DNA of 64,000 nt from an uncultured Clostridia bacterium (GTDB taxonomy: Bacteria; Bacillota; Clostridia; TANB77; CAG-508). The stretch's first letter is position 1. Each line of letters starts with the position of its first letter. A program made the translations under genes and the position numbers. The notes under the pieces were generated by a model. The model was not told the origin of the DNA. It did not search any database and was given only the letters and a program-made list of their open reading frames with translations. This document shows, piece by piece, positions 11,021 to 62,140 of this stretch. The DNA is taken from NCBI GenBank assembly GCA_928721565.1, contig OV788638.1, positions 68,229-132,228 on the forward strand. Reading direction: 5' to 3'.

Positions 11021-11356
11021 CATTTAGGACCGGTTCTTTGTTGTCGTTTTGGTGGTCGTTTGGGGTCGTTTGGGACCGGTTCTCTGCTGTCGTTTATTGG
11101 TCATTGGTGGTCGTTTGGGACCGGTTCTCTTTTGAACATTTGCTCATTTGGGACCGGTTCTTGAATGAGCAAAAATTGCCAAAAAAATAAAGGCAACATA
11201 GCCAAATAGCTATATTGTCTTTATATTTCTGTTCATTTGGGACCGGTTCTCTTTTGAACACCTGCTCATTAGGGACCGGTTCTTAAAGGGACAATGCTCA
11301 TTAGGGACCGGTTCTTAAAGGAACAATGTTCATTGGGGACCGGTTCTTAAATGAAC
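11021..11356 (+). repeat. REP-like cluster 1: 8 copies, all with GGGACCGGTTCT on the + strand
   Basis: Cores start at 11027 (TAGGACC variant), 11072, 11117, 11150, 11239, 11272, 11304 and 11336. Flanks are (T/G)(G)(T/C)TCATT...(TAAATGAACA or CTTTTGAACA). Confidence 0.9.
11181..11219 (-). terminator. Putative rho-independent terminator of the 6634-aa gene, located in the middle of REP cluster 1
   Basis: Stem ggcaacatagc (11192..11202) pairs with gctatattgtc (11209..11219): 11 bp with one mismatch and one G-T. On the minus strand it is followed by TTTATTTTTTT (plus-strand A-run 11181..11191). Confidence 0.5.
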
Positions 11357-11367
11357 AATGCAAATAT

Positions 11368-14300
11368 CTAGCGTCCCATCTTAAATGCACTTTCATTTGA
11401 ATATATTAACTCTGGTGAATATACTACAAGATTTGCATTTCCACAGTTTGTAAACATATTATCGTGTTTTGTCGCTATTTTTGTAAATCCTGAGCCCAAG
11501 TCTAGTGTTGTCATTGCTGTTGTTCCTGTTCCATTAAACATATTGGTCATGTCTGTTGATGAGGTTGTATAGAATTTGTCTCCCAGATCCAGACTTGTCA
11601 TTGCAGTAACTCCACAATTTTGGAACATTCCGCTCATGTCTTTTCCATTGCTTGTGTTGAAGTTGTCTCCTAAGTCTAGCCTTGTCATAGATTGATATCC
11701 ACAGCCTCTGAACATTTCTTTGTATACTGTTACTTTAGTTGTATCAAACTTATCTCCTAAATCTAAAGCTTCCATCGCATTTCTACCACAAGACATAAAC
11801 ATATATCTCATGTCAGTTACATTTTTGGTATCAAAATTTTCTCCCAAGTCTAATTTTTTCATTTTCATATATCCTGTGTGATGGAACATTCCATTCATAT
11901 TAGTTACAGTTGTTGTATTGAAGTTGTCTCCCAAGTCTAAAGATGTCATTGCTGTGTATCCACAATATGCAAACATATTTTGCATATTAGTAGCTGATTT
12001 TGGATTGAATTTTTCTCCTAAATCTAGTGTTTCCATTGACTTATATCCACAATATGAGAACATTTCATACACATTTTGTATAGCCCCTACATCAAAGTTC
12101 TTTCCTAAGCTGAATGTTTTCATATTACTATATCCAAAATATGTAAACATGTGATCTATTGTTGTTACATTATCTACATGTAGCAATCCTATATTTTCTA
12201 TTATTGGGTTTGATTCTTCACTTGTTTCTGCACAAGCTGAATCATATCCAATGTAGGCGAATAAGTAACTTGAGATTGCATTACCATTCATTATAATGCT
12301 ACTTCCTATATGAACTATATAGGTGTTTCTTGGAGTTGTTTCATACCAAGCGATAATAGATCCATCTTCTTGAGCTGAAACATCCCATCTTGTGTCATCA
12401 GTATAATTTGCATAATCTTCTAAAATAATCTTTTCAACTTTTTGTCTTTGGATTTTATCATTTCCTAAGAACGGACTTGTTGCAGTTGTTTCCGTGTCAG
12501 TCTTTCTTAAACAGCTATACAAGATAAATTCTTGTTCTTTACTCTTGTTTCCAGAGCTGTCAACTAGTGAGTTCGCTGCTACTACAAGTTTTACTTGATA
12601 TGCGTTACTTATAAATCCTGAAATATTTATTTTGTATTGTCTACCATAAGTTAATGAAACTGAAGTATCTTCTGTAACTTCTAAAGTTATTCCAGAAGTT
12701 TGTTCTTGGCCATTTACAAGAACTTTAATTTGGCTTGCAGTCAATTTAGATTTTGCTTTATCTAAATATTTATCAGTTCCTTTTAGGATAATACTTGCTG
12801 TTTGTTTAATTGGTGTTGCAGTTGCTGTTCCAACTTGTTCCCAAAGTGGATCAACTACGTCTACAATTTTTCCATCTCCTGTACCTCCTGGGAAATCTAC
12901 TCCTGATGAAATTGTGGTTGGAACATTTCTATTGTCAGAAGTATCTTTAACAATTCCTGCTTTTAAAGCTACTGTAATTACACCACTATAATCCAAATAT
13001 TCTCCGGTTTTTATAGTCTGTTCTAAATTTGATATTCTTAGTGTGTAACGTTTTCCAACAGTCTGGTTTGTTAAACCAACTTGAATTTTTCCATCAATTG
13101 TCTTATTGATTGGTTTTTCTACAGTTCCTGCCAAAACATTTTCTGTTGCAATTATCTCTTTAGTTATTTTGTCATTATCTGTTATATCCTCTCCATCAAC
13201 TTTAATTGTCAAATAATTTTTCAAGTTTTCTGTTGTTAATGTGCTACTTTCAGCAAAGTATTTATCTATTACTTCAATTGCCATTGTGAATGTTTTTCCT
13301 GTATAGTCTATATCTGAATTTGAATATTTGTATGTTATCTCTGGCTCTATAAAGTCTACAAAATCGCCATCAATTGTTGTCTTTTCATTTGTGTTTTCAA
13401 AAGTATCTTGTACTGCTCCTTCTTGAATTTCTATTGAAACTGTACCACTCCAATCAGTATAATTTCTAGATGAATCAATAGATTGTCTTTCTTGTTTGAA
13501 GTCTGACAATACTAATTGATATTGTTGCCCTATCGTTTTTGTTGTTCCATTTACTGTTGCTGTTATGTCAGAAAGTTTTGTAAGTGCTTTTGTTACACTG
13601 CTTGCTGATTCTTTATCAACTAGTACTGAAATGTCGTCTGCATTTAATTCTTTGGTTGTGTCTAAATGTTTATCAATTACATTAAATATTATTGTTTCTG
13701 TTGAATCACCTTTTGTTGATGATACTTTTGTGATTTCTGGTTTTACAAAGTCTATGTCTCCTAATGTAAATGTTTGAGCTTGATTTGTGTTTTTATATTT
13801 GTCAGTTAATGTTCCTTTTGGAATTTCTATTTTTGTAGTACCACTATATTCTCTATAAGTTCTTCCACTAGCATTAAATGTTGTATCATTTTCTGGCCAA
13901 TTTGATAGTGTTAATGTATATCTTACTCCATATGGTACTTGTGTAGTTGTTCCATTTACTGTTCTTTCTTCTTTTAACTCTGTTCCTTCACTTAATTGTT
14001 TTGTAACATTTTCTGTGCTTGTTACTTCATTTTCGTCAATATAGACTTTAATTCCATCAGTTGTTAATTTAGTTTGTGTTCCATCAAAATATTTATCTGT
14101 TCCAACTAAATCAACTGTTACAATTTTGTTTGCTTTGTCTATATTTATGTTTTCTGTTTTCCACATTGGGTCTACAACATCAACAATTTGCTGAGTTCCT
14201 GTATTTGTAGGGTTATTTACACCTATTGTTATTGTTTTTGCAATATTTGTATTTTTTGATTTATCTGTTGCAATTCCTTCTGGGAATGTAATACTCATTG

Positions 14301-17300
14301 GTCCACTGTAGTTTCTATATTTTGCTCCTGTTGCAATGTCTGTTTCTTGCAAACCTCCTATTACCAATCTGTATTTTTCTCCTATTTTTACAGGTTCTGC
14401 TGAATCTTCACGTGTTTCTGTAACATCCTCTATTTTTGTTATTTCTTTTGTTATATTTGCATCTGGTATTTGTGTGTCTGCATCTAATAGTTTTACAATT
14501 ATACCATCTTTTTTATTTATAACTGTTGATGCATCAAAATATTTGTCTATTACAGAGAATTCTACTGTTAGTGTTTTGTTTGTTTGATCAATATTTCCAT
14601 CTGTATATACATATGTGAATTCTGGTTTGATAAAGTCTGTAAACATTGCATTTGCTGTGTTTTTGTCTACTTTTGTTGTGTCTGTTATTGTGTTGTCTGC
14701 TCTTGCTCCATCATCTGTTATTGTGATGTTTTTGTTTCCATATTTATCTGCCAAACTTTTTTGTGCTACTTCGACTGTTATATTTCCACTCCACTCGATA
14801 TAGTTCTTTCCTGTTCTTCTTGATATTTCTGCAAAGTTTGATAGTGTTACTTCTTGCAATATGTCTTTTGCTCCTGTTTTTGCATTTGTTGTTTGTGTTG
14901 CTGTTCCTACTTCTTTTGTTACTATATCTGTTATGTCTGTTCCTTCTATTAGTACTTTTATGTTTCCTGCTGATAATGCACTTGTTACATCACTTGTGTA
15001 TTCATTTGCACTAACTGCTGTGTTTGTTGTTCCTCTTAGTTTGATTTTTATTTTTGGCGTGTTTGCATCTGCTGTGTCTATTGTTGTTCCTTCTTTTATC
15101 CATTCTGTTCTGTATTTTGGATTTATTGTTCCTCTTGTGTAGCTTATTGCTGATGTTGTTGCATCTGTATTTAATTTAAAGTTATTTTTATCTTGAAATA
15201 TTGCTTCTGGTGCATATATTACTAATTTCCCATATTTTCCTGCATTCCAACAAAAATATGAATTATCTTCAGGTATTTGAGTAAATGCTGGACCTAAGTC
15301 TAATGTTAATAATGCTTGATTTCCTGTAAGTCTAAACATATTAGTCATGCTAGTAACTTTACTTGTATAAAATTTATCTCCTAAATCTAATGAACTTAAT
15401 TTCATAACTCCTGTCTCATTAAACATAGCTGACATTTTTTGAACATTACTTGTATCAAACTTATCTCCTAATTTCAAGCTTTCCATTAATGTATATCCAG
15501 TGTCTTGGAACATATACCCCATATTTTTTACTTTGCTTGTATCAAAATTGAATCCTAAATCTAATGTTTTTAATGCTGTATATCCAGTATGGTCAAACAT
15601 CATCTCCATAGTAATTACATTACTTGTATTAAATTTACTTTCCAAATTCAATTCAGTCATTGCTGTGTATCCTGTATCCATAAACATTGCTTCCATATTT
15701 GTTACATTACTTGTATTAAATTTGTCTCCTAAATCTAGACTTGTCATTGCTGTATATCCTGTTCCAAAAAACATATAACTCATATCAGTTACATTACTTG
15801 TATCAAATTTATCTCCTAAGTTCAGACTTGTCATTGCTCTATATCCTGTATTTGTAAACATCCTATTCATATTTGTTACATTAGTTGTATTTAATAATCC
15901 TATATTTGTAATTGTTTCTGTTGCAGTGCAGTTCTCCCCAGCTCCAATATATGCAAATAAATAACTTGAATCTACATTAGCAGAAATTTCGCCTTCACTT
16001 GCAATATATACCTTTTGAGTTCCATTAGAATTGCTTGTTTCATTCCATGCCAATATTGACCCATCTTGTTGAGCTGAAACATCCCATGCTGTATCATTTT
16101 TATACGTCTTAGTTGATATGTCAAAAACAGATGTTGGTATATTATTTAAAAATGTTACATTATCAATATTCTGTCTTTCAAGTGTAGTATTACCTAAAAA
16201 TCCACTATCAGCATTTTGTTCTGTATTTGTTGTCTTTAAAGCATTATAAATCATAATATCAGTATCTTCGTTAGTATTACCAGACTTATCTGTAAGAGTA
16301 CCTGCTGGTATTCTAACTTTAACCTGATTTTTATCTGTCGGATAATTAGAAACAGAAATTGTATATTGCACTCCATATTGTACATTAGAAGTATTTCCAT
16401 TTTCACTTCTCTCTTCTGTCAAGTTTGTTGCAGAACTTAAGTTTACTGTAGTTCCAGTAGTTTCAGCTCCATCTACAAATACTTTTATTTTGTCTTTAGT
16501 TAAACTATTACTTGCATAATATTTATCTGTACCATTAACAACTATTGTTGCTGTTTTGCTTTTCATATCAACTGTTCCAGTTGATTTTTCCCATATTGGT
16601 CTTACAAGGTCTATAATCTCTTCTGATCCTTCTCCACCTGGCAAGTCAATACCTGTAGTTATTGTTGTAGTTTTATTTGTATTATTTGAATCATCTTTAA
16701 TCTTATCTGCATCAATTGTAACTGTAATAACACCACTGTAGTCTAAATATTTATCTCCTTCTTTTATTTGCAATTGTTCTAGATTAGATAATGTTAATGT
16801 ATATCTCTTTCCAATCTTTTTTGAACTTCCATTAACAACTTCCTTTAAAGTTTCATCACTTAAACTTCTTGTTATTTCACTCCATTCAGGAGTTTTTCCA
16901 TCAATTTTTATTGTTAAATCTGATAAAGTTAATTTAGCATTTTCTGAATAATAGTATTTATCTGTTACATCAAATATTAATTTTACTGATTTTGCTGATT
17001 TGTCAATTACTGTATTTGCATTTTTGTATATTACAATTGGTTTTATAAAGTCTACAAAATCTCCTGTTATTTCTGTCTTATCATTTGTATTATTAGAATC
17101 ATCCTTTACTGCTGAATCTGCAATTTCTATTGAAACGGTACCACTGTAGTCTTTGTAATTCTTGTTTGTTGCAATACTTGCTTGTTCAAAATTAGATAAT
17201 ACTAATTGATATTGCTGTCCTATAACTTTTGATGTACCATTTATTGTTTCACTAATATCAGAAAGTTTTGTAAGTGTTTTTGTTATAGTTGATACAGCTT

Positions 17301-20300
17301 CTCCATCAATTTTTGTGGTTATTTTATCTGCAGTTAGTTCATTTGTTGTATCTAAATATTTATCTGTTACATTAAATATTATTGTTTCTGTTCCAGCCAC
17401 TGAATCTTTTGTTGATGAAACTTTTGTTATTTCTGGCTTGATAAAATCTACTTTTCCAATTTCTAGCTCTAATTCTTGGTTAATATTTCCTGACTTATCT
17501 AATAATGTGCCTTCTGGAATTTTGATTTTTGTAGTTCCACTGTATTCTCTATATGATCTTCCACTTGCTTTAAATACTTCATCTGTTTCTGGCCAGTTGT
17601 CTATTGTTAATGTGTATTTTACTCCACATAATTGAAGAGTTCCGTCTCTTGTTTCAGTTACTGGCGTTTTACCACTTAATGTTTTTGTAACATTTGCTTT
17701 ACTAGTTATTTCCACTCCATCTACAAATAGCTGAATTTTGTCTGCTGTTAATAATGAATTTGAATAATATTTGTCTGTTCCTAGTAGGTCTACTGTTACT
17801 TTTTTATTTGCCTTATCTATTTTTAGATTTTGTGTTCTCCATTCTGGTTTTACAACATCTACTATCTCTTGGTTTCCTGTATTATCAGGATTGTTTACAC
17901 CTATTGTTATTGTTTGAGCATTGCTTGTATTCTTAGATTTGTCTGATGCAACTCCTACTGGAAATGTAATGCTCATTGGTCCACTGTAATTATTATAGTT
18001 TCCTGCAGAATCTTTTTGTTCTAATCCACTTATTGTCAACTCATATTTTTCCCCAATTTTTACATCTTCTCCGTTTCTACTTTCTGTAATATCTTGAGTT
18101 TTTACTAATTTTTTTGTTAAGTTTGGAATGTTTGTATTTGTATCTAGTAATTTTACTGTTATTCCTGTTGGGTCATAACTTCCATCTGAAAGTGTTTTCC
18201 ATGATGTATGGTCAAAATATTTATCCGTTATAGAAAATTCTACTGTTAATGTCTGTTTTTCTTTATTTATGTTTTCATCTGAATAGATATATGTGAACTC
18301 TGGTTTGATAAAGTCTGCAAACATTGAATTTGCTGTGTTTTGGTCAACTTGAGTTGTGTCTGTTATTTTGTTGTCTGCTCTTGCTCCATCTTCTGTTGTT
18401 TCTACGTTTTTATTTCCGTATTTATCTGATAAACTTTTTTGTGCTACTTCTATTGTTATGTTTCCACTCCACTCTTTATAGCTTTTTCCTGTTCTTCTTG
18501 ATATTTCTGCAAAGTTTGATAGTGTTACTTCTTGCAATATGTCTTTTGCTCCTGTTTTTGCATTTGTTGTTTGTGTTGCTGTTCCTACTTCTTTTGTTAC
18601 TATATCTGTTATGTCTGTTCCTTCTATTAGTACTTTTATGTTTCCTGCTGATAATGCACTTGTTACATCACTTGTGTATTCATTTGCACTAACTGCTGTG
18701 TTTGTTGTTCCTCTTAGTTTGATTTTTATTTTTGGCGTGTTTGCATCTGCTGTGTCTATTGTTGTTCCTTCTTTTATCCATTCTGTTCTGTATTTTGGAT
18801 TTATTGTTCCTCTTGTGTAGCTTATTGCTGATGTTGTTGCATCTGTATTTAATTTAAAGTTATTTTTATCTTGAAATATTGCTTCTGGTGCATATATTAC
18901 TAATTTCCCATATTTTCCTGCATTCCAACAAAAATATGAATTATCTTCAGGTATTTGAGTAAATGCTGGACCTAAGTCTAATGTTAATAATGCTTGATTT
19001 CCTGTAAGTCTAAACATATTAGTCATGCTAGTAACTTTACTTGTATAAAATTTATCTCCTAAATCTAATGAACTTAATTTCATAACTCCTGTCTCATTAA
19101 ACATAGCTGACATTTTTTGAACATTACTTGTATCAAACTTATCTCCTAATTTCAAGCTTTCCATTAATGTATATCCAGTGTCTTGGAACATATACCCCAT
19201 ATTTTTTACTTTGCTTGTATCAAAATTGAATCCTAAATCTAATGTTTTTAATGCTGTATATCCAGTATGGTCAAACATCATCTCCATAGTAATTACATTA
19301 CTTGTATTAAATTTACTTTCCAAATTCAATTCAGTCATTGCTGTGTATCCTGTATCCATAAACATTGCTTCCATATTTGTTACATTACTTGTATTAAATT
19401 TGTCTCCTAAATCTAGACTTGTCATTGCTGTATATCCTGTTCCAAAAAACATATAACTCATATCAGTTACATTACTTGTATCAAATTTATCTCCTAAGTT
19501 CAGACTTGTCATTGCTCTATATCCTGTATTTGTAAACATCCTATTCATATTTGTTACATTAGTTGTATTTAATAATCCTATATTTGTAATTGTTTCTGTT
19601 GCAGTGCAGTTCTCCCCAGCTCCAATATATGCAAATAAATAACTTGAATCTACATTAGCAGAAATTTCGCCTTCACTTGCAATATATACCTTTTGAGTTC
19701 CATTAGAATTGCTTGTTTCATTCCATGCCAATATTGACCCATCTTGTTGAGCTGAAACATCCCATGCTGTATCATTTTTATACGTCTTAGTTGATATGTC
19801 AAAAACAGATGTTGGTATATTATTTAAAAATGTTACATTATCAATATTCTGTCTTTCAAGTGTAGTATTACCTAAAAATCCACTATCAGCATTTTGTTCT
19901 GTATTTGTTGTCTTTAAAGCATTATAAATCATAATATCAGTATCTTCGTTAGTATTACCAGACTTATCTGTAAGAGTACCTGCTGGTATTCTAACTTTAA
20001 CCTGATTTTTATCTGTCGGATAATTAGAAACAGAAATTGTATATTGCACTCCATATTGTACATTAGAAGTATTTCCATTTTCGCTTCTCTCTTCTGTCAA
20101 GTTTGTTGCAGAACTTAAGTTTACTGTAGTTCCAGTAGTTTCAGTTCCATCTACCAATACTTTGATTTTATCTTTAGTTAAACTATTACTTGCATAATAT
20201 TTATCTGTACCATTAACAACTATTGTTGCTGTTTTGTTTTTCAAATCTACTGTTGCAGTTGATTTTTTCCATATTGGTCTTACAACATCTATAATTTCTT

Positions 20301-23300
20301 TTGAACCTTCTCCACCTGGTAAATCAATACCTGTAGTTATTGTTGTAGCTTTATTTGTATTATTTGAATCATCTTTAACCTTATTTGCATCAATTGCAAC
20401 TGTAATAACACCACTGTAGTCTAAATATTTATCTCCTTCTTTTATTTGCAATTGTTCTAGATTAGATAATGTTAATGTATATCTCTTTCCAATCTTTTTT
20501 GAACTTCCATTAACAACTTCCTTTAAAGTTTCATCACTTAAACTTCTTGTTATTTCACTCCATTCAGGAGTTTTTCCATCAATTTTTATTGTTAAATCTG
20601 ATAAAGTTAATTTAGCATTTTCTGAATAATAGTATTTATCTGTTACATCAAATATTAATTTTACTGATTTTGCTGATTTGTCAATTACTGTATTTGCATT
20701 TTTGTATATTACAATTGGTTTTATAAAGTCTACAAAATCTCCTGTTATTTCTGTCTTATCATTTGTATTATTAGAATCATCCTTTACTGCTGAATCTGCA
20801 ATTTCTATTGAAACGGTACCACTGTAGTCTTTGTAATTCTTGTTTGTTGCAATACTTGCTTGTTCAAAATTAGATAATACTAATTGATATTGCTGTCCTA
20901 TAACTTTTGATGTACCATTTATTGTTTCACTAATATCAGAAAGTTTTGTAAGTGTTTTTGTTATAGTTGATACAGCTTCTCCATCAATTTTTGTGGTTAT
21001 TTTATCTGCAGTTAGTTCATTTGTTGTATCTAAATATTTATCTGTTACATTAAATATTATTGTTTCTGTTCCAGCCACTGAATCTTTTGTTGATGAAACT
21101 TTTGTTATTTCTGGCTTGATAAAATCTACTTTTCCAATTTCTAGCTCTAATTCTTGGTTAATATTTCCTGACTTATCTAATAATGTGCCTTCTGGAATTT
21201 TGATTTTTGTAGTTCCACTGTATTCTCTATATGATCTTCCACTTGCTTTAAATACTTCATCTGTTTCTGGCCAGTTGTCTATTGTTAATGTGTATTTTAC
21301 TCCACATAATTGAAGAGTTCCGTCTCTTGTTTCAGTTACTGGCGTTTTACCACTTAATGTTTTTGTAACATTTGCTTTACTAGTTATTTCCACTCCATCT
21401 ACAAATAGCTGAATTTTGTCTGCTGTTAATAATGAATTTGAATAATATTTGTCTGTTCCTAGTAGGTCTACTGTTACTTTTTTATTTGCCTTATCTATTT
21501 TTAGATTTTGTGTTCTCCATTCTGGTTTTACAACATCTACTATCTCTTGGTTTCCTGTATTATCAGGATTGTTTACACCTATTGTTATTGTTTGAGCATT
21601 GCTTGTATTCTTAGATTTGTCTGATGCAACTCCTACTGGAAATGTAATGCTCATTGGTCCACTGTAATTATTATAGTTTCCTGCAGAATCTTTTTGTTCT
21701 AATCCACTTATTGTCAACTCATATTTTTCCCCAATTTTTACATCTTCTCCGTTTCTACTTTCTGTAATATCTTGAGTTTTTACTAATTTTTTTGTTAAGT
21801 TTGGAATGTTTGTATTTGTATCTAGTAATTTTACTGTTATTCCTGTTGGGTCATAACTTCCATCTGAAAGTGTTTTCCATGATGTATGGTCAAAATATTT
21901 ATCCGTTATAGAAAATTCTACTGTTAATGTCTGTTTTTCTTTATTTATGTTTTCATCTGAATAGATATATGTGAACTCTGGTTTGATAAAGTCTGCAAAC
22001 ATTGAATTTGCTGTGTTTTGGTCAACTTGAGTTGTGTCTGTTATTTTGTTGTCTGCTCTTGCTCCATCTTCTGTTGTTTCTACGTTTTTATTTCCGTATT
22101 TATCTGATAAACTTTTTTGTGCTACTTCTATTGTTATGTTTCCACTCCACTCTTTATAGCTTTTTCCTGTTCTTCTTGATATTTCTGCAAAGTTTGATAG
22201 TGTTACTTCTTGCAATATGTCTTTTGCTCCTGTTTTTGCATTTGTTGTTTGTGTTGCTGTTCCTACTTCTTTTGTTACTATATCTGTTATGTCTGTTCCT
22301 TCTATTAGTACTTTTATGTTTCCTGCTGATAATGCACTTGTTACATCACTTGTGTATTCATTTGCACTAACTGCTGTGTTTGTTGTTCCTCTTAGTTTGA
22401 TTTTTATTTTTGGTGTGTTTGCATCTGCTGTGTCTATTGTTGTTCCTTCTTTTATCCATTCTGTTCTGTATTTTGGATTTATGGTTCCTGTTGTTAGTTC
22501 TATTGTTGTTTCTGAGTCTGTGCCTGTTTTGAAGTGTGTGCTGTCTTGGAATATTGCTTCTGGTGCTTGAACTTCTAATGCATCTGCTTTTCCTGTGTCA
22601 GTGAACATATCTGTGTTTTTGTCTGCTATTTGGGTAAATGCTGGTCCTAGGTCTAATGATGTCATTGATGTTTGTCCTGTTTGATAGAACATGTCAGCCA
22701 TATATATTACATTGTTTGTATCAAATTTGTCCCCTAAGTCTAAGCTTGTCATTGCCGTTTGTCCTGTTTTATTAAACATATTACTCATATTAGTTACATT
22801 ACTTGTATCAAATTTGTCTCCTAAATATAAACTTGTCATTGCTGTATTTCCAGTTCTATAGAACATTTGAGTCATATCAGTCACCTTGCTTGTGTCAAAT
22901 TTATCTCCTAAGTCTAATCTTGTCATTGCTTTCTGTCCTGTTCCCAAAAACATACCTGTCATATACATCACATTACTTGTATCAAATTTGTCACCCAATT
23001 CCAGACTTGTCATCGCTGTATTTCCCGTTTGTCCAAACATACCTTCCATATTTGTTACACTACTTGTATCAAATTTATTTCCTAAGTTCAGACTTGTCAT
23101 TGCCTTATATCCTGTATCTGCAAACATGTACTCCATATTAGTTACACTACTTGTATTTAATAATCCTATATTTGTAATTGTTTCTGTTGCAGTGCAGTTC
23201 TCCCCAGCTCCAATATATTTAAATAAATGACTTGAATCTACATTAGCAGAAATTTCGCCTTCACTTGCAATATACACTTTTTGTGCACCATTACTATTGC

Positions 23301-26300
23301 TTGTTTCACTCCAAGCTAGTATTGAACCATCTTGTTGTGCTGATACGTCCCATATATTGTTATAAATCTTTACATCATAGACATTCATATTAACAAATGC
23401 CCCTACAGGATCTGGAACATCACCTTTTGGATTACATCCAATTGACATTACTGTATCATAAAGTGGATCTTTTATACTTCCTGATGTTGCTGTTTTTGCA
23501 GCTAATACGCCATCAATATATAGCATTACATTTTTACCATCATATATTCCTGTAAGACGTACCTTTTTTCCTGCAGTTAATGGTTCCTCACACACAGCTC
23601 TAACATACTGATTCTCTTCAGTAATATATACTGCAAATCTAGGGGTTCCGTCATATAGATATAATTCAATACCTCCTACATCTAAGTTACCTAATATTGT
23701 TCTTTCTCCTTCTTGTATTGTATTTAAAGAAATTGTCGTATCAACCATTACTTTGCTATTAGGGAAACTCATTTGTCCAAGATTTACCCAATCATCAACA
23801 CCATCAAGTTGTAAATATCCGTCTTTCCAAACTGCTCCATTAATAGTTCCATCATTGCTTCCATTTAAATCCTTCCATGTTGTTGCAGTACTACTGTACC
23901 CATTTCCGGTATTATTTTCAGAACTGTATCTATTTGTTGCTCTTATTGATGATAGTCCACCTTTCATAAATGTTACATTTTCAATGTTCTTTCTTTCAAG
24001 TGTAGTATTACCTAAAAATCCACTTGTAAAAGCTGTTTCTGTCTTTGTTGTTACCAAAGCATTATAAATCATAATATCAGTATCTTCGTTAGTATTACCA
24101 GACTTATCTGTAAGAGTACCTGCTGGTATTCTAACTTTAACCTGATTTTTATCTGTCGGATAATTAGAAACAGAAATTGTATATTGCACTCCATATTGTA
24201 CATTAGAAGTATTTCCATTTTCACTTCTCTCTTCTGTCAAGTTTGTTGCAGAACTTAAGTTTACTGTAGTTCCAGTAGTTTCAGCTCCATCTACAAATAC
24301 TTTTATTTTGTCTTTAGTTAAACTATTACTTGCATAATATTTATCTGTACCATTAACAACTATTGTTGCTGTTTTGCTTTTCATATCAACTGTTCCAGTT
24401 GATTTTTCCCATATTGGTCTTACAAGGTCTATAATCTCTTCTGATCCTTCTCCACCTGGCAAGTCAATACCTGTAGTTATTGTTGTAGTTTTATTTGTAT
24501 TATTTGAATCATCTTTAATCTTATCTGCATCAATTGTAACTGTAATAACACCACTGTAGTCTAAATATTTATCTCCTTCTTTTATTTGCAATTGTTCTAG
24601 ATTAGATAATGTTAATGTATATCTCTTTCCAATCTTTTTTGAACTTCCATTAACAACTTCCTTTAAAGTTTCATCACTTAAACTTCTTGTTACTTTGGTC
24701 CAATCCGGAATTTTTCCATCAATTTTTATTGTTAAATCTGATAAAGTTAATTTAGCATTTTCTGAATAATAGTATTTATCTGTTACATCAAATATTAATT
24801 TTACAGATTTTGCTGATTTGTCAATTACTGTATTTGCATTTTTGTATATAATTGTTGGTACTATAGTGTCAATAAACATATTACCATCTGCATTTTGATT
24901 ATGATTTGTTGAATCTTTTATTGTTGTATTTTGTAATACTGTTCCATTTTCTAATGTTATGTTTTTATTTCCATATGAGTCTGTTAATGTTGAATTATCT
25001 ATTTCTAAAGAAACATTTCCACTCCATTCTTTAAAGCTCTTTCCACTTTGGAATCCTGCTTGTTCCAAATTTGATAATGTTATTGTTTGTATTACATCTT
25101 TTGCTCCTGTTGTTGTATTTGTTCCTTGTGTTGCTGTTCCCATATCTATACTTATATCGTTTGTTGCGTTTTCTCCATCAATTAATACTTTTACATTATT
25201 TTTTTCTAATGATGTTGTTACGTCACTTGTGTATTCTTTTGCTGATACTTCTGGGTTTGTTGTTCCTCTTAATGTTATTTTCATTGTTTTTTCTGTTGTG
25301 TTTACTTCTACATTTTCTTTTGTCCATTCTGTTCTGTATTTTGGATTTATTGTTCCTGTTGTTAGTTCTATTGTTGTTGTAGAATTTGTATTTGCTCTAA
25401 AATGTGTTGTGTCTTTGAATATTGCTTCTGGTGCTTGGATTACTAGTGAGCCTGATTTGCCTGTGTTACTAAACATCTTTTCAGTTGCTTCATGTTTAGG
25501 GACATTTGATCCATATGTTGTTATTGGATCTCTACTTCCTGTTGGAATATTAACAAAAGCTGGTCCTAAATCTATTGTTGTTACATTTGTATTTCCAAAG
25601 TTCATAAACATACAATACATGTCAGTTACATTATTAGTATTAAATTTATCTCCTAATTTTAATGTCTTAGTAGACGTTTGTCCTGCTCTTTCAAACATTC
25701 CCACCATAGTTGTTACTTTGCTTGTATCAAATTTGTCTCCTAAATCTATCACTTCTAATACATTTGCAAAACTTACAAACATTCCATACATATCTGTAAC
25801 ATTACTTGTATCAAACTTATCTCCAAAACTAAAGTCCGTCATTGAATACTGTCCTGTACCAGCAAACATCCACATCATAGTTGTTACTTTACTTGTATCA
25901 AATTTGTTTCCTAATTTTAAACTAGTCATTTTCTGTCTTCCAACTTCACCAAACATTGCCATCATATTTGTAACATTGCTTGTGTCAAAGTTTTCTCCAA
26001 GATCTAAACTTTTCAATTTCATTTCACCACAATGTGGAAACATAAAGCCCATATTTGTAACTTTACTAGTATTAAATTTAGATCCAAGATTAAGTTCTGT
26101 CATTGAATTGTATCCACAATACCAAAACATATTAAACATATTAGTTACATTGCTTGTATCAAAATTTGTTCCCAAATCTAATTTTGTCATTGATTTATAT
26201 CCTGTATAATAAAATACTCTGTACATACTTGTTACATTACTTGTGTTTAGCAATCCAATATTTGTAATTGTTTCTGTTGCTGTACAATTGTCTGAATATC

Positions 26301-29300
26301 CTATATAGTTGAACAAACAGTCTGAATTTTCATTAGCATATATTGTTTTTTCACTTCCAATATATACTTTTAGCGCTCCACTTGCTTGTTTTTCTACCCA
26401 GCCCATAATTGAGCTATTTTCTTCTGCAGATACATCCCACATACTTACTTCTGTTTCTGATAATGCTTTGTCATAAATGTTTACTTTATAAACATTCATC
26501 TTTGCAAATTGTCCATCTCCAGATGTGCTTCCAGATGGGTTACATCCTATTGCCATTACAGTGTTATTATCAGACTTTTTTATTGTTCCTGAAACAGCAG
26601 TTTTTGCTACTAATGTTCCATTTACGTATATCTTCAAGCTTGTTCCATCATATGTTGATGTAAGACGTGTTTTCACTCCTGTTTTTATAGCATTTGTTGC
26701 TCTTGCATAATAATATGTTCCTCCAATATTTACTGATGTACATGGAACTCCATCTTTTAGAAAAAGTTCCGTTCCTCCTGCTTGTACATTCGCAAGTATC
26801 TCTACATTTCCTGATTGTATTTGATTTATCTCAATTGTAGCATCTAATGTTACTTGATTAGTGAAATTCATTTGCCCTAAGTTTACCCAGTCATCTACAC
26901 CATCTAAAATTAAGTATCCTGTTCCCCAAGCTCCTCCATTGATAGTTCCATCTTGATTTCCTGCAATAGCTTTCCATGTTGTTACATTACTATCAAATCC
27001 AGACCCTGTGTTATACATAGAGTCATATGCATATAATGGTGCTGTTTCACTTGGAACAGTATTTGTAAATGTTACATTTTCAATATTTTGTCTTTGTATT
27101 CCTGTATTTCCTAAAAATCCACTTGTTGCTTCTGTTTCTGTATCTGTTGTTTTTAGTGTTCCTGGTTGAAGTGTTGTATTAAATGTTCCTCTTACATATT
27201 GAACTGTTGTTGATGAATTTGAATTCAATTTTGCATTATGTCTGTCTTTATACAATTCTGATGATATATATATTATTGCTCCTGATTTTCCACAGTCTTT
27301 GAATATTCCATCATATGCTTTTCCTTGCCAATTAGTAAGATTTATATCTCCATCTGGTATATTTTTAAATGCTATTCCTAAATCTAATGTTTCCATTGCT
27401 TCATAGCCACACTTATAAAACATATTATGCATATCTGTTACTTTACTTGTATTAAATTTGTCACCTAAATTTAGTTTTTTCAATGCTTTATATCCTGTCT
27501 CATAAAACATTGTATTCATATCTGTTACATTACTTGTGTCAAAATTTGATCCTAGGTTTAATGTTGTCATTGATGTATATCCACATCTCGCAAACATCCA
27601 ATCCATTGTTGTTACTTTGCTTGTATTAAATTTGCTACCAAAACTCAATGCTGTCATATTATAATATCCACATTCAGCAAACATCCCTTGCATATTTGTA
27701 ACACTGCTTGTATCAAAATTTGATCCTAAGTCAAGTGTTGTTAAATTAGAATATCCAAAAGCATGAAACATTCCCTTCATATTAGTTACTTTGCTTGTAT
27801 TAAATTTGTCTCCTAAACTAAACGTTGTTACTAAATGTGCTGCACTTTCAAACATTCCTTCCATATTTGTTACATTGCTAGTGTCAAATTTACTTCCTAA
27901 ATTTATCTCAGATAAACTATCCATTCCGCAGTGCCAAAACATGTAATCCATGTCAGTTACTTTACTTGTGTCAAAGTTTGCTCCAAGATTAAGTTTTTTT
28001 AACGTATATGGTCCTATATCAGAAAACATTTCTCTCATATTTGTAACATTACTTGTGTCAAAAGTATCTCCTAAATCTAAGCTTGTCATTGCATGATAGC
28101 CAGTAGAAGAAAACATATTATGCATATCTGTTACTTTACTTGTATTTAAATATCTAAGATTCGTAATTGTCTCTGTTGCTGTACAATTGTCTGAAAGTCC
28201 TATACAAGAAAATAAATAACTTGAATCTTCATTTGCATAAATAGTTCCTGAACTTCCAATATATACTTTATATGTTCCATTAGCTTGTGTTTCATACCAT
28301 GCTAATATTGAACCATTTCCTTCTTCTGATACATCCCATTTTGTTGAGTTTGCTCCTGATGTACTGTCTAATAGTGTTACATTGTCTATATTTTGTCTTT
28401 GTATGCTTGTGTTTCCCAAAAAACCACTTGTTTTTTCTGTTTCTGTATTTGTTGTTTTTAGTGTTCCATCTTTTGCTATTTTCTTAAATGTTCCATTTGT
28501 ATATGTTATTTTTGTTGTTGATGTCGAATTTAATTTTATATTTGTGCTATCTACATATATGTCTTTGGATACATAAATTATACAACCAGATTGTCCACAG
28601 CCATCGAATATCTCATTAATAGTCCCCCCAAAGTCCGATTTACAATCTGAAATATTGGTAAATGCTGTTCCCAAGTTCAAGCTTGTCATTTTTTCATATC
28701 CACAACTATTAAACATATATTCCATACATTCAGATTTACTTGTATTAAATTTATCTCCCAACTCCAAACTTGTCATTTTTTTATATCCTGTATTCATAAA
28801 CATTCCAGCCATAAATGTTACTTTGCTTGTATCAAATTTTTTTCCTAAGTTTAATTGGGTCATTTCATTGTATCCACAATCTCCAAACATTTCATCCATA
28901 AAAGTAACATTACTTGTATCAAAATTGTCCCCTAAGTCTAAAGTTGTCATTGCATGATATCCAGTATATTCAAACATAGATGACATTTGTGTTACTTTGC
29001 TTGTGTTTAGATATTTTAAATTTGTAATAGTTTCTGTTGATGTGCATTTATCTCCACTTCCGATATTAGCAAATAAATAACTTGAATCTGTATTTGCATA
29101 TATTGTTCCACTTTCACTTCCAATATAAACTTTATATGTTCCATTGGCTTGTGTTTCATACCATGCTAGTATTGATCCATCTCCTGTTTCTGATACATCC
29201 CATTTTGTTGAATTTGCTCCTGATGTGCTATTTACAAATGTTACATTATCAATGTTCTGTCTTTGTATACTTGTGTTTCCTAAAAATCCACTTGTTGCTG

Positions 29301-32075: not shown

Positions 32076-32092
32076 TTTTTTCATCATATCAT

Positions 32093-41255: not shown

Positions 41256-42044
41256 TTATTTTGCATCCCAAGCTTTACTGACAATTCTCTTATTTACCCT
41301 TATAACCCTTGCTACTTGGTTTTTACATGATCCCTTTATTTTTTTTATAATTTTGATATCATTTTCAAGGTTTTCTTTTTCTCTTGTCTTAAAAAAATTT
41401 GCAAACTCATTCATGTCACAAATCTTAAATTTTTTCATAATAATTTGAATCAATTCTTCATCTGACAATCTGTTTATAATTTCATATTCGGCATAATCGT
41501 ATAAATTTTCCATTTCTTCAAGTTCTAATCTAGTAGTATATTTTATGAATTCACTTATATCATTATTAAAATAGTGCATTAAAACCTTTTTATTAATTAT
41601 TTTTTCGTTTCCTATGTATTCATTATAACTACTCCACTTATATTTTTCTGTTTTAGCAATTCCTGCTTTTTCTGGATTTCTATGGACATATCTGCAGACT
41701 TCTAAAAAATATCTCTGACTTTCAACACATTTGCTCTTGAATCTATTCTGAACTAAAGGTCCGGACCTATCATATCTAGTATTAAAATAATACACATATC
41801 TAATCATTAAACTTTGAATCATTTTCGATAAAAATTTTATTTCATTTTTTATAACTATATGTACATGATTAGTCATTAAACAGTATGAATAAATTTCTGA
41901 ATTAAATTCTTTTTTGAGTTTTAAAATTTGTTTTAAGAAATAATTTCTATCTTGATCATCATAAAAAATATCTTGATTATCAATTCCTTTTATAATTACA
42001 TGATAAATTTTCGAGTTGCTTTCTCTTCTTTGTCTTCTTGGCAT
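41256..42044 (-). CDS. IS200/IS605-family Y1 (HUH) transposase-like protein, REP-associated tyrosine transposase (RAYT) type, with extra C-terminal domain
   Basis: YHVIIKG...YSYCLMTNHVHIVIK (HUH motif HVH followed by hydrophobics). NRFKSKCVESQRYFLEVCRYVHRNPEKAGI...YKWSSYNEY is the typical COG1943/RayT pattern with the catalytic Tyr in RYVHRNP. 262 aa; the C-terminal ~90 aa may be an HTH (GSCKNQVARVIRVNKRIVSKAW). RBS aaaggagga. Confidence 0.8.
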   Translation of the reverse strand: MPRRQRRESNSKIYHVIIKGIDNQDIFYDDQDRNYFLKQILKLKKEFNSEIYSYCLMTNHVHIVIKNEIKFLSKMIQSLMIRYVYYFNTRYDRSGPLVQNRFKSKCVESQRYFLEVCRYVHRNPEKAGIAKTEKYKWSSYNEYIGNEKIINKKVLMHYFNNDISEFIKYTTRLELEEMENLYDYAEYEIINRLSDEELIQIIMKKFKICDMNEFANFFKTREKENLENDIKIIKKIKGSCKNQVARVIRVNKRIVSKAWDAK

Positions 42045-42088
42045 TTTTCCTCCTTTCTATTTTTTTCAGTAATTATTTTACGTGTATC

Positions 42089-42117
42089 ATTATAACATGT
42101 TTTTTATATTATGTCTA
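42089..42117 (-). promoter_or_regulatory. Putative promoter of the RAYT gene (-35 TAGACA, 17 nt spacer, extended -10 TGTTATAAT)
   Basis: Minus strand reads TAGACA (42112..42117), a 17-nt spacer ending in TGT, then TATAAT (42089..42094). Confidence 0.5.
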
Positions 42118-42149
42118 CATATTCTACTGAAAAATAAATACAAAAGTTC

Positions 42150-42241
42150 TGGCAAGAACCGGTCCCAAGTGAACAACTGCACATTTAAGAACCGGTCCCT
42201 GATGAACAATTGTCCAAAAGAGAACCGGTCCCTAATGATCA
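42150..42241 (-). repeat. REP-like cluster 10 (5' flank of the RAYT gene): 3 copies, inverted orientation, 33-nt period
   Basis: Cores (AGAACCGGTCCC) at 42155, 42188 and 42221. Confidence 0.9.
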
Positions 42242-43078
42242 TTATTTTATAAGTTGTAGCATATCACTATTGCTATTTAATCCTTCAAGATTGTAATAGC
42301 TCTCTGGAATATTTCCAACAATGACATGTTCAGCAATAATAACTTGATTAGTTACTTTCTGAGTATAATTTTTCAATGGTGTTACTATTTTCATGTCACA
42401 GTCAAAATTCACATATACTCTGTGTAATGATTGATTAATTCCTTGTGCAATGAATTCACTTTTTATATCTGTTTCTACATTTCCTGTAATTGATATAGTG
42501 ATTGGTATTTCTGGTCCAAATCCTGAAATAAAGTATATTCCTGATAAATTTCCTAATGTTATTGCTATATCTGTTTTTCCTATATTGTCAAATTCGTGTT
42601 GAATGTTTTCTGTTAAGTCTGAAATTAGATTGTTTATTGGTACAACATTTGCTTTGACTATCATAACATTACCGTTTCCGTCTTTTTCTAGTGTATATAA
42701 TTGGTTATATTGATATTTGTTCATTATTAGTGTTGATTGCTGATTCGTTATAATAGTTGCAACCGATTTCACTTTTTCTTCGCATAGTGTTTTAAATACT
42801 GGTTCAAAGTAGTAGAAAATAAATCTGAAGATTATTATTATTCCAACTAATACTATAATAAGCTTTACTATTTTTCTTTTTTTATGCCTTCCTATAGCAG
42901 ACCTTCCTGAATCATCCCCTCCTGTATTATATCTTCCTGAATCATGCCCTCCTGTATTATGTCTTCCTGTATTATCCCCTCCTGAATAAGAACTGTTATT
43001 ATTTTTTTTTCTATTTTTATATGCCAATATCACAAATCTTCTTCTTGAATATATTTTGCTAATTTTTTCCTCAGCCAT
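42242..43078 (-). CDS. yunB: Sporulation protein YunB
   Basis: N-terminal TM segment, then ...ITLGNLSGIYFISGFGPEIPITISITGNVETDIKSEFIAQGINQSLHRVYVNFDCDMKIVTPL, which matches the conserved YunB core. The N-terminal region has a G/D/T-rich repeat (GGDNTGRHNTGGHDSGRYNTGGDDSGR). Confidence 0.75.
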   Translation of the reverse strand: MAEEKISKIYSRRRFVILAYKNRKKNNNSSYSGGDNTGRHNTGGHDSGRYNTGGDDSGRSAIGRHKKRKIVKLIIVLVGIIIIFRFIFYYFEPVFKTLCEEKVKSVATIITNQQSTLIMNKYQYNQLYTLEKDGNGNVMIVKANVVPINNLISDLTENIQHEFDNIGKTDIAITLGNLSGIYFISGFGPEIPITISITGNVETDIKSEFIAQGINQSLHRVYVNFDCDMKIVTPLKNYTQKVTNQVIIAEHVIVGNIPESYYNLEGLNSNSDMLQLIK

Positions 43079-48654: not shown

Positions 48655-48730
48655 GCCACTATAGCTCAGTTGGTAGAGCGACGGATTCGTAACCCGTAGG
48701 TCAGCAGTTCGATTCTGCTTAGTGGCTCCA
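48655..48730 (+). tRNA. tRNA-Thr, anticodon CGT
   Basis: Hand-folded cloverleaf: acceptor GCCACTA/TAGTGGC, D-arm GCTCAGTTGGTAGAGC, anticodon loop TTCGTAA, T-arm AGCAGTTCGATTCTGCT, encoded 3' TCCA. 76 nt. Confidence 0.85.
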
Positions 48731-48766
48731 TAAGATAAAATCGTCGCACTAATGTGACGTTAATGA

Positions 48767-49633
<867 letters not shown>

Positions 49634-53982: not shown

Positions 53983-54007
53983 TATTTATTCCTCCAATCT
54001 TTACATG

Positions 54008-54116
54008 GTACATTAGGGACCGGTTCTTCGCTGATCATTTTTATGTAACTTGTTCACTAGGGACCGGTTCTTTCTTGACACACTTGTTCATTTAAGAACC
54101 GGTCCCTAATGAACAA
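54008..54116. repeat. REP-like cluster 11: 3 copies (+,+,-). The last two form a REPIN-like doublet.
   Basis: Cores at 54016(+), 54060(+) and 54095(-). GTTCACTAGGGACCGGTTCT (54052..54071) pairs with AGAACCGGTCCCTAATGAAC (54095..54114) as an inverted repeat with one mismatch. Confidence 0.9.
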
Positions 54117-54124
54117 CTGAACAC

Positions 54125-54147
54125 AAAAACTGGTCCCCAAGGACCAG
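54125..54147 (-). terminator. Rho-independent terminator after 54152..55726
   Basis: ctggtcc (54130..54136) pairs with ggaccag (54141..54147), loop ccaa. On the minus strand it is followed by TTTTTGTGT. Confidence 0.65.
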
Positions 54148-57610: not shown

Positions 57611-57730
57611 TTCATTTAATGTTCATTTAAGAACCGGTCCCTAATGAACAAGTTACATAAAAATGATCGGCGAAGAACCGGTCCCTAATGAACATAGTCA
57701 AGAGAGAACCGGTCCCTAATGAACAAAAGG
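57611..57730 (-). repeat. REP-like cluster 12: 3 copies, inverted orientation
   Basis: Cores (AGAACCGGTCCC) at 57630, 57674 and 57705. The last flank taatgaaca abuts the RBS aaaggag of the U32 gene. Confidence 0.9.
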
Positions 57731-62023: not shown

Positions 62024-62047
62024 TTTTTCTTCTCCTTGCTGACCATT

Positions 62048-62140
62048 GACCATTTAGGACCGGTTCTCTGCTGAACACTTGCTCATTTGGGACCGGTTCT
62101 CTGAGGAACACTTGCTCATTTGGGACTGGTTCTCTGAGGA
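62048..62140 (+). repeat. REP-like cluster 13: 2 copies (+) plus one degenerate copy, 33-nt period
   Basis: Cores at 62057 (TAGGACC variant) and 62089. Degenerate GGGACTGGTTCT at 62122. The first core lies 34 nt upstream of the dxs ATG. Confidence 0.85.

Follow-up and report, generated by a model that had tools for sequence, protein, structure and literature searches.

Intergenic arrays of REP-like hairpin repeats and a candidate RAYT/TIRYT-type partner gene in an uncultured Clostridia bacterium

Repeat arrays at the locus

The window analysed here is a 64,000-nt stretch of an uncultured Clostridia bacterium (GCA_928721565.1, contig OV788638.1, positions 68,229 to 132,228). Arrays of a short repeat occupy many of its intergenic gaps, among them several in the hydABC hydrogenase operon and both flanks of a single-copy transposase-like gene between yunB and hydC. 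The features are listed below in window coordinates; A, B and C denote types of repeat unit.

Array 1a, 11015–11173, plus strand: 4 units (cores 11026, 11072, 11117, 11150) between two giant genes, with 10-nt partial repeats GGTCGTTTGG in between the units
Array 1b, 11228–11359, plus strand: 4 tandem units at 32–33-nt spacing (cores 11239, 11272, 11304, 11336), ending 10 nt from the stop codon of a 6634-aa gene
Array 2, 31450–31548, both strands: plus units 31459 and 31492 facing one minus unit, 31526
Array 3, 33538–33618, plus strand: a B-type then an A-type unit (33549, 33595)
Array 4, 35027–35138, plus strand: 3 units, 35038 (44-nt C type), 35082 and 35115
Array 5, 35677–35785, minus strand: 3 units (35765, 35732, 35689), abutting the hydA stop codon
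Array 6, 37565–37697, plus strand: 4 units between hydA and a 175-aa ORF, ~87% of the gap
Array 7, 38271–38403, plus strand: 4 units between the 175-aa ORF and hydB
Array 8, 40355–40511, plus strand: 9–10-nt partial repeats GGACCATTT (40355–40402), then 3 units B, C, A (40414, 40444, 40488), ending 7 nt from the hydC stop codon
Array 9, 41134–41232, both strands: downstream flank of the transposase-like gene, 3 units, 1 sense (41210, minus) and 2 antisense (41176, 41143, plus) relative to that gene
RAYT/TIRYT-like HUH/Y1 transposase homologue, 41256–42044, minus strand: 262 aa
Promoter match, 42089–42117, minus strand: best sigma-70-like match of the scanned region (TAGACA-17-TATAAT with TG), a consensus match only
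Array 10, 42143–42243, minus strand: upstream flank of the transposase-like gene, 3 sense units (42221, 42188, 42155), abutting the yunB stop codon; 91% identical to array 7 over 88 nt
Array 11, 54005–54146, both strands: plus units 54016 and 54060 facing minus units 54095 and 54126 (degenerate)
Array 12, 57618–57722, minus strand: units B, C, A in order (57705, 57674, 57630); C-A block 90% identical to array 8 over 80 nt
Array 13, 62047–62144, plus strand: 3 units (62056, 62089, 62122) between dxs and an M23 peptidase gene

The core GGGACCGGTTCT occurs in 38 exact copies in the window (0 expected from 100 shuffles), and a search allowing up to two mismatches gave 46 copies against 0.37 expected. 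A preliminary description had counted 44 intact 12-nt cores; the dense family stands, with a corrected count of 38 for the exact 12-mer and 43 for the 11-mer GGACCGGTTCT. Every copy lies between 11026 and 62133, and 13 of the ~26 intergenic gaps are occupied with 2–8 units each, as had been reported. A covariance model built from the repeat units recovered 45 of them at E ≤ 0.011 and nothing credible within the genes of the window; together with the mismatch search it bears out the earlier statement that all copies are intergenic and absent from coding DNA. Apparent overlaps with the ORFs 37725–38345 and 35786–37573 are artefacts of longest-ORF start calls; on the near-identical contig L001 the starts called for these genes lie further downstream. 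Intergenic DNA amounts to ~5.15 kb, or ~8% of the window, and contains all 46 units, a density of 0.72 units per kb of window. In two gaps of the hydrogenase operon (37574–37724 and 38253–38427) units take up 75–87% of the sequence. Over the 11–42 kb region they fill ~38% of the non-coding DNA (36 × 33 nt of 3.16 kb), and the claim that they make up most of it was too strong.

Neighbouring units are mostly direct (head to tail) at a spacing of 30–46 nt, and only three inverted junctions are found inside arrays (31492/31526, 41176/41210 and 54060/54095). The arrays usually abut stop codons, 6 of the 13 ending within 10 nt of one. Thirty-three units are on the plus and 13 on the minus strand. 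Replication and transcription share one direction throughout the window, so that this bias can be assigned to neither of them. At the gathering score, Rfam models reached only a tRNA-Thr in the whole window and no family for the repeat, so the check for an already catalogued RNA family came back empty; at E ≤ 1, the arrays in 35000–42400 gave only spurious miRNA-precursor matches far below the cut-offs. A literature search with the core sequence returned only unrelated primer or oligonucleotide matches. A phage origin was rejected, since the repeat pattern had no matches in the viral contigs searched.

Hairpin structure, spread and turnover

Each unit is a 31–33-nt hairpin with a 6–8-bp outer stem, an apical GGGA/TTCT stem and a CCGG loop, and the flanks follow the form TGTTCATT(A/T)...TAAATGAACA or ...CTTTTGAACA. 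The flanks are as originally described, the inner stem has 4 bp (G·T, G-C, G·T, A-T) rather than 5, with both G·T wobbles conserved, and the supposed 8-bp outer stem is variable: only 23 of the 46 units keep at least five of six pairs, so that half of the units are imperfect. In a set of 107 distinct units drawn from 8 genomes, pairing was seen in 76% of cells compared with 70.2% in shuffles (none of 500 reached the observed value), and the covariation score of 0.174 exceeded that of the shuffles (0.092; 0 of 500) as well as all slid controls. Outer-stem pairs show 19–27 double changes, for example TGTTCA/TGAACA, TGCACA/TGTGCA and TGCCCC/GGGGCA; metagenomes add the arm pair CGTGCA/TGCACG. This covariation shows that the hairpin is under selection. 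The core, including its invariant G·T positions, is far more conserved than the arms. As single-stranded DNA the hairpins are moderately stable (−4 to −9 kcal/mol), and the folding of the two strands differs by just 0.4–1.5 kcal/mol; this strand asymmetry is not decisive. In all 46 units GT[AG]G is missing from the 8 nt on the 5′ side of the hairpin foot, which is most often preceded by the tetranucleotides CAGT, CAAT and CATT. A scan for intrinsic terminators found no T-tract after the hairpins and placed the terminator-like matches mostly on the strand opposite the genes; the intrinsic-terminator reading was rejected on these grounds.

The expectation that the family extends beyond the window was confirmed: four related MAGs carry the repeat at loci that have no relation to the window, and more than 120 metagenome stretches contain it as well. 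The same arrays recur with small differences in five independent assemblies from different samples, and the short-read contigs L003, L005, L025 and L070 end in repeats. Between near-identical strains we observed changes in array length and partial-unit indels only, with no new loci. In array 7, for example, L001 (98% identical) is short of exactly one 33-nt unit. Replication slippage could explain such differences without an enzyme. Between species at dS ~0.2, clusters have been gained, lost or flipped. Multi-unit blocks recur at distant loci with 90–91% identity.

The transposase-like gene and its flanks across lineages

The transposase-like protein carries an HUH motif (H60-V61-H62; NHVH), a catalytic-tyrosine motif (Y119-VHRNP; YVHRNP) and a WSSY motif. 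Among 22 homologues of 257–287 aa, NH[VI]H, Y[VI]H[RQ]NP and WSSY show no or almost no variation. The match to Pfam Y1_Tnp passes its cut-off (E = 9.6e-9; 35.8 bits against 23), and that to the NCBIfam model REP_Tyr_transpos (NF047646), at 54.7 bits, falls under the cut-off of 80. The predicted fold is that of a Y1 transposase, with 2vic, 2vju and 2xm3 (TnpA of IS608 and ISDra2) as the top Foldseek matches and a further match to 4er8; the first full-length model was poor near the catalytic tyrosine (pLDDT 64.5). A C-terminal domain of ~80 aa is predicted to be all-helical (pLDDT 87). By TM-score it is closest to DnaA domain IV (3pvp, 1j1v and 8btg; TM 0.47–0.49), a likeness that is not significant in Foldseek (E ≥ 2.5), and weak Pfam HTH_7 or HTH_28 matches appear at the C-terminus of only 3 of the 22 members (E 0.014–0.19). 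Sequence searches of the PDB gave no match for the protein or its family profile. The profile of the C-terminal domain hit designed armadillo repeats only, which we treated as spurious.

The gene is under purifying selection (dN/dS 0.16–0.25), and the promoter match sits between the upstream array and its start. The window, L021 and L026 share the order yunB, transposase-like gene, hydC, and the dS of the transposase-like gene resembles that of its neighbours; in L024 the hydC side is kept and a sigma-factor gene intervenes between yunB and the transposase-like gene. The synteny and the neighbour-like dS argue for domestication and vertical inheritance of the gene and against an insertion sequence. 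It is single-copy within the window, which contains no tnpB. Many homologues sit on contigs of ~1 kb, implying that the assemblies are interrupted to either side of the gene. In a plasmid collection, tblastn found only distant homologues annotated as 'transposase', with 28–39% identity confined to the catalytic domain; the homologue of Acetoanaerobium noterae was reached by this route.

Three sense units precede the gene in the window and one sense and two antisense units follow it. Because 13 of the ~26 gaps are occupied, this flanking could, in the window alone, be due to chance (~1 in 4), and for that reason the argument for an association of gene and repeat rests on the comparative data. 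Ten other lineages, with proteins 39–76% identical, have a repeat-flanked homologue, which upholds the suggested link to a RAYT gene. The polarity of sense units upstream and antisense units downstream is found wherever both flanks can be read (the window, L021, L024, L026, L053, L070, L028, L029 and A. noterae); L044 and L030 offer the downstream flank only. Most of the ten lineages keep the GGGAC(C)GG core, and the outer stem covaries. Distant lineages each have their own repeat variant, GGGAC alone being common to all. In A. noterae DSL2, the cultured member of the set, the protein is 39% identical and the motif lies around the homologue and at no fewer than 33 places in the genome. The apex motif is kept between an uncultured gut lineage and Acetoanaerobium.

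Relation to known systems and interpretation

RAYT group 1, or subclass 2.1, is the largest RAYT group; to our knowledge it has so far been taken to lack REPs, and no function is known for it. The family described here is real and REP-like, and the closest described class is TIRtron/TIRYT (RAYT group 1, TnpAY1 subclass 2.1), the assignment to subclass 2.1 being made only by comparing motifs with the published table. TIRtrons/TIRYT (Di Nocera et al. 2013, PMC3733652) largely correspond to TnpAY1 subclass 2.1 (Quentin et al. 2018, PMC6006769) and to RAYT group 1 (Bertels et al. 2017, PMC5581495). As in TIRtrons, a RAYT-like gene is flanked by inverted repeats other than GTAG REPs. The motif given for the flanking repeats of TIRtrons is GGGGWSAS, to which the G-rich motif of the present repeats comes close without a full match: GGGACCGG in the window, where (T)GGGACCG matches 6 of 8 positions, GGGGACGG in L029 and GGGGACAT in L030, each matching 7 of 8. 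The protein carries the signature given for TIRYTs (NHVH or NH[YF]H; Y[IV]HLNP or YIELNP; a proximal 'SS'; ~238 aa) and, at 262 aa with a helical C-terminal extension, is longer than classical RAYTs; the C-terminal domain of TIRYTs is a helix-turn-helix resembling Bac_DnaA_C, HTH_23 or HTH_28. Group 1 has been reported in Clostridia, and in the RAYT literature that we searched Firmicutes and Clostridia receive only passing taxonomic mentions of this kind. The differences lie in abundance and form. The repeats reach a REP-like or higher density here, compared with the ~12 copies across the genome that Bertels et al. (PMC5581495) give for the flanking 16-mer of group 1 and with 'no REP' for subclass 2.1 (Quentin et al., PMC6006769), and the units fold on themselves as hairpins in direct tandem arrays of up to 8. 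Some TIRs do form moderately abundant families in dimers or clusters (Di Nocera et al., PMC3733652).

The likeness to E. coli REP/BIME and TnpAREP (YafM; subclass 2.2; PMC3333891, PMC8266576, 4er8) extends to extragenic imperfect palindromes of 20–40 nt, positions within operons and after stop codons, subtypes (Y, Z1 and Z2, comparable to types A, B and C), tandemly repeated composite blocks of strain-variable copy number as in BIME-2, and a single-copy HUH/Y1 gene between inverted copies as in the REPtron. In contrast to E. coli REPs, there is no 5′ GT[AG]G foot, the conserved sequence lies at the apex of the hairpin instead of the foot, neighbouring units are direct rather than alternating, and the protein has an extra C-terminal domain and scores below the NCBIfam equivalog cut-off. 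Measured against canonical REPs and REPtrons (subclasses 2.2, 2.4, 2.5, 2.7 and 2.8), the family has the short extragenic multi-copy palindromes and the inverted flanking of an HUH/Y1 gene, and lacks the GT[AG]G foot and a match to the curated model of REP-associated tyrosine transposases. It is therefore not a canonical REP, since its units have no such foot and form direct tandems instead of inverted dimers; the preliminary designation as REP/BIME/REPIN-like holds in the broad sense, with TIRtron/TIRYT closer than E. coli REP/BIME. With the REPIN-RAYT systems of Pseudomonas and Enterobacteria (groups 2 and 3; Bertels and Rainey) it shares a single-copy, vertically inherited enzyme gene under purifying selection, a population of short repeats diversifying into lineage-specific 'master' sequences, and a slow turnover in which orthologous gaps are still occupied across species. 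The proposed replicating unit of REPINs is an inverted dimer, whereas the recurring blocks here are direct (B-A or B-C-A), and the inverted-pair organisation of REPINs and BIMEs is not seen in the window arrays. The IS200/IS605 family (TnpA of IS608 and ISDra2) has the same catalytic fold and the same logic of hairpin recognition in single-stranded DNA. In an insertion sequence of this kind, which is mobile and multi-copy, tnpA lies between subterminal hairpins of the same strand, often along with tnpB. Identity with such an insertion sequence was rejected: the gene is syntenic, single-copy and not mobile, it has no tnpB, it stands between inverted arrays and not between a left-end and a right-end hairpin on one strand, and the repeats far outnumber the gene.

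We consider it probable that the repeats are non-autonomous REP-like hairpin elements whose cognate enzyme is the HUH/Y1 homologue at 41256–42044 (RAYT/TIRYT type), and that enzyme most likely spreads them. REP/RAYT systems are known mainly from Proteobacteria, and the present system would be their Gram-positive counterpart. We infer its catalysis, active strand, cleavage sites and mode of copying from the analogous enzymes IS608 TnpA and E. coli TnpAREP. In single-stranded DNA, for instance at the replication fork, each unit would fold into a hairpin, of which the enzyme would recognize the conserved apex and 5′ flank, CATT(A/T)GGGAC(C)GGTTCT. Y119 would cleave, and the strands would then be rejoined. 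Units added or removed beside existing ones would yield head-to-tail arrays, and blocks of 2–3 units might occasionally be copied to new intergenic sites. Selection would keep copies only where they are harmless, immediately behind stop codons and clear of promoters and ribosome-binding sites. Binding of double-stranded DNA may be a further contribution of the helical C-terminal domain.

The conservation of the core beyond the arms, invariant G·T included, is also what sequence-specific recognition would produce, and the units could instead be host cis-acting sites for a nucleoid or regulatory protein, possibly for the HTH-like C-terminal domain of the transposase-like protein itself, in arrays that change by slippage and with an HUH domain that mobilises nothing. 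The confidently helical C-terminal domain, whose best match by TM-score, though not significant, is DnaA domain IV, and strain differences in unit number and microrepeats would suit this reading. We nevertheless judge it unlikely: the catalytic HUH and tyrosine motifs do not vary and purifying selection acts on them, and a protein that binds double-stranded DNA has no need of the covariation seen in the outer stems. Slippage, moreover, is unable to seed new loci, to copy composite blocks of 75–88 nt to distant gaps or to flip the orientation at an orthologous gap.

Another suggestion, that the units act in RNA as 3′-end stabilisers, processing sites or attenuators and that the link with the transposase-like gene is incidental, has in its favour the position of arrays next to stop codons and inside the hydABC operon, the wobbles, which become G·U pairs on one strand only, and E. 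coli REPs, for which RNA-level secondary effects are among the properties described in PMC3333891. We find it very improbable. With 33 of the 46 units lying antisense to their minus-strand neighbour genes, it is the strand with A·C mismatches that would be present in most mRNAs; the hairpins have no T-tract and their terminator-like matches lie mostly on the non-transcribed strand, no Rfam family covers them, and nothing in this view accounts for the inverted flanking that is conserved around the gene in ten further lineages. That short-read contigs break at the repeats might even raise the suspicion of an assembly artefact or of an ordinary minisatellite confined to the region, to which we give hardly any credence, given that the arrays recur in five independent assemblies of different samples and that the family is found at many unrelated loci in many samples.

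Our preferred reading, that the HUH/Y1 enzyme spreads the repeats, admits a wider and more tentative form, which we regard as quite possible. RAYT group 1/subclass 2.1 (TIRYTs) may be genuine repeat-generating enzymes. Among them, a Clostridia-wide clade would recognise the apex motif CATT(A/T)GGGAC(C)GGTTCT, which would be ancient, and in the gut lineage this clade would have driven a hyper-expansion into direct tandem hairpin arrays filling the free intergenic space. Cleavage and rejoining near TTTGG^GACC might then have left the 9–11-nt partial repeats at array edges as footprints.

What is known of REP/RAYT biology comes almost wholly from Proteobacteria and from GTAG-footed REPs, and the Gram-positive, gut-associated lineage described here carries a much denser repeat load. 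The tandem same-orientation hairpin arrays of hydABC are a natural case, within an essential operon, in which effects on expression could be measured. If the link between gene and repeat is true, a large enzyme class without an assigned role would gain a substrate, Acetoanaerobium noterae DSL2 would serve as a culturable test organism, and the fragmentation of short-read assemblies of these gut Clostridia at intergenic regions would be explained.

Counts, placement and hairpin structure of the repeat

The window's repeats form a genuine REP-like family, whose cognate gene is of the RAYT/TIRYT type. Exact copies of the 12-mer core, GGGACCGGTTCT, number 38 in the window; 100 dinucleotide-preserving shuffles gave none. 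Allowing up to two mismatches raises the count to 46 (0.37 expected), and a covariance model made from the units retrieved 45 at E ≤ 0.011. The 44 intact copies of the preliminary description were somewhat too many for the 12-mer. No credible match to the covariance model was found in the coding DNA of the window. The gene map, built from ORFs, Pfam matches and gene calls on near-identical metagenome contigs, places 100% of the units in intergenic gaps (13 of ∼ 26 occupied), and intergenic DNA as a whole takes up 8% of the window (∼ 5.15 kb). That the repeats make up most of the non-coding DNA holds for two gaps of the hydrogenase operon (hydABC) and fails elsewhere, while the rest of that description of the family was borne out.

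Mapped genes and ORFs of the window
1-31272, minus strand: three giant ORFs with DUF285 repeats of 87 nt (29 aa)
<1 to about 3220, minus strand: partial giant ORF
3234-10883, minus strand: 2549-aa giant ORF
11368-31272, minus strand: 6634-aa giant ORF
31674-32075, plus strand: candidate 133-aa ORF, in the 869-nt gap shared with array 2
37725-38252, minus strand: conserved ORF of ∼ 175 aa between hydB and hydA
41256-42044, minus strand: RAYT-like ORF, 262 aa, Pfam Y1_Tnp match
48655-49633: tRNA-Thr(CGT), then a 278-aa ORF with an N-terminal resolvase fragment and a MobA/VirD2 relaxase fragment

The giant ORFs also contain higher-order modules of ∼ 3.68 kb, some at 100% identity (15409-15708 equals 19087-19386; 16130-16429 equals 19808-20107). 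A strong terminator-like hairpin (32091-32125) lies 3' of the candidate 133-aa ORF. The ∼ 175-aa ORF has neither a Pfam nor an NCBIfam match and is shared by all the related loci examined (L001, L021, L024, L026, L030). The resolvase/relaxase ORF, called as 218 aa on contig L002, may be the remnant of an integrated mobile element.

Units are 31–33 nt long, with 6–8 bp formed between the outer arms. In the fullest form, type A, TGTTCATT(A/T)-GGGACCGGTTCT-TAAATGAACA, the core folds into an apical stem of four pairs (G·T, G-C, G·T, A-T) with a CCGG loop. Type B ends 3' in CTTTTGAACA and keeps only 6 bp of the outer pairing; type C (44 nt, …TTGCTGGTCATCTTTATGTAACC) allows an alternative hairpin. 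The hairpins have moderate stability in single-stranded DNA (−4 to −9 kcal/mol, z-scores −1.5 to −5). Across relatives the core remains GGGACCGG(TTCT) and the arms change in compensating pairs (TGTTCA/TGAACA, TGCACA/TGTGCA, TGCCCC/GGGGCA, CGTGCA/TGCACG). On 107 distinct units the structure scores above 500 of 500 shuffles and all slid controls, and no unit departs from the G·T wobble at columns 14/21. Because GGACCGG was the search key, its invariance arises by construction.

Array layout and turnover

Head-to-tail stacking predominates, usually in the order B(-C)-A, and distant gaps share composite blocks: one of 88 nt at 91% identity (38306-38393 and 42154-42241), others of 80 nt at 90% and 75 nt at 91%. 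Arrays usually start directly 3' of the upstream gene's stop codon. The stretch left free in front of the following gene is ∼ 100–170 nt (promoter and ribosome-binding site) or ∼ 21–25 nt (ribosome-binding site only). This layout is to be expected if insertions persist only where they do no harm. Arrays are often closed by a variant end unit lacking GGGAC in its core; such units may be decayed copies or a separate terminal type. On the 5' side, in element orientation, often stand 2–6 tandem partial copies of 9–11 nt, each comprising the end of the 5' arm and the first core Gs (e.g. repeated GGACCATTT, then GGGACCGGTTCT).

Variant end units and microrepeats
L021 and L024 arrays (e.g. L021 9890-9920) and L053 5520-5545: end units AAGACTGGTTCT or AAGACTGGTAC
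Window, about 37700 and about 35003: end units ATGGATTGGTTCT or GGAGTGGTTCT
Window, 40355-40413, 11043-11071, 31437-31458, 62036-62055, 54002-54015: microrepeats
L001/L002, upstream of the RAYT-like gene, and L047 3480-3620: microrepeats

Between strains of 98% identity the differences are one exact 33-nt unit, indels of parts of units and, in the microrepeats, indels of 19 nt and 39 nt. Much of the change in array length may be due to slippage; the microrepeats could have arisen that way, or they could be traces left by cleavage and rejoining near TTTGG^GACC. Between species at dS ∼ 0.2 the occupied gaps differ, as does the orientation at one orthologous gap. The repeat also occurs in four related MAGs at loci without similarity to the window and, among the matches listed, in more than 120 metagenome stretches (GC 24–33%); none was found in the viral contigs searched.

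The RAYT-like gene and its flanking repeats

The RAYT-like protein matches the NCBIfam REP-associated tyrosine transposase model, with a score under the model's cut-off. Its NHVH (H60, H62), Y119-VHRNP (tyrosine) and WSSY motifs are invariant or nearly so across 22 homologues. The whole-protein AlphaFold model, of modest quality, matches IS608 TnpA, ISDra2 TnpA and E. coli TnpAREP (entry 4er8). The C-terminal 80 residues are confidently modelled as a helical bundle that superposes best on DnaA domain IV, in matches without statistical significance. The enzymatic mechanism is inferred from homology.

The host lineage, uncultured low-GC gut Clostridia, occurs in Hadza and other human gut metagenomes. 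Orthologues (64–76% identity) lie between yunB and hydC in L021 and L026. At L024 (8786-9697) a sigma-70-family gene separates yunB from the RAYT-like gene, and an ABC transporter pair lies between spoVG and liaF, so the gene's surroundings vary to some extent, although its linkage with hydC is fixed. The orthologues' dS is comparable to that of neighbouring genes and their dN/dS is 0.16–0.25, pointing to a gene that has been domesticated and is inherited vertically. For many homologues the whole contig is ∼ 1 kb, so the assembly breaks off on both sides of the gene.

In the window, three sense units lie upstream of the gene, and one sense and two antisense units downstream. The arrangement of sense units before and antisense units after the gene recurs in L021, L024, L026 and two loci found by tblastn, L053 and L070 (the latter at 55% identity); in L044, where the gene is represented by its 3' part alone, antisense units lie downstream. 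Homologues at 57–60% identity have their own local repeats with only GGGAC in common: GGGACCWGGTCCC (L028) and GGGGACGGGATTG (L029) on both sides of the gene, GGGACATTTTGTACCCGGTAC (L030) seen downstream only. A 39%-identical homologue in the cultured Acetoanaerobium noterae has two sense ATCATTAGGGACGGTTCT units upstream and one antisense unit over its stop codon, with at least 33 matching places in the 2.63-Mb record. In some lineages the ORF runs into the first downstream antisense unit, which then encodes the C-terminal residues, the case labelled 3' overlap in a figure legend on TIRtrons (Di Nocera).

Unit-encoded C-termini
Homologues P0118 and P0108: K-E-P-V/A-P-N
A. noterae, L151 3790-3810: K-E-P-S-L-M-I-stop

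Relation to known systems

Unlike canonical REPs, the units have neither a GT[AG]G foot nor an inverted-dimer module. E. coli BIME-2 likewise shows composite mosaics and tandem copy numbers that vary between strains (PMC3333891). The protein's length and motif signatures fit TnpAY1 subclass 2.1 (RAYT group 1, largely TIRYTs). TIRYT genes are described as having, on their flanks, inverted repeats with GGGGWSAS, which sometimes form moderately abundant families (PMC3733652). Bertels et al. (PMC5581495) report RAYT group 1 from Clostridia and count only ∼ 12 copies per replicon for its flanking 16-mers, and another survey lists subclass 2.1 without REP association (PMC6006769). Repeat families this dense have not been described before for the host's phylum or for this enzyme class.
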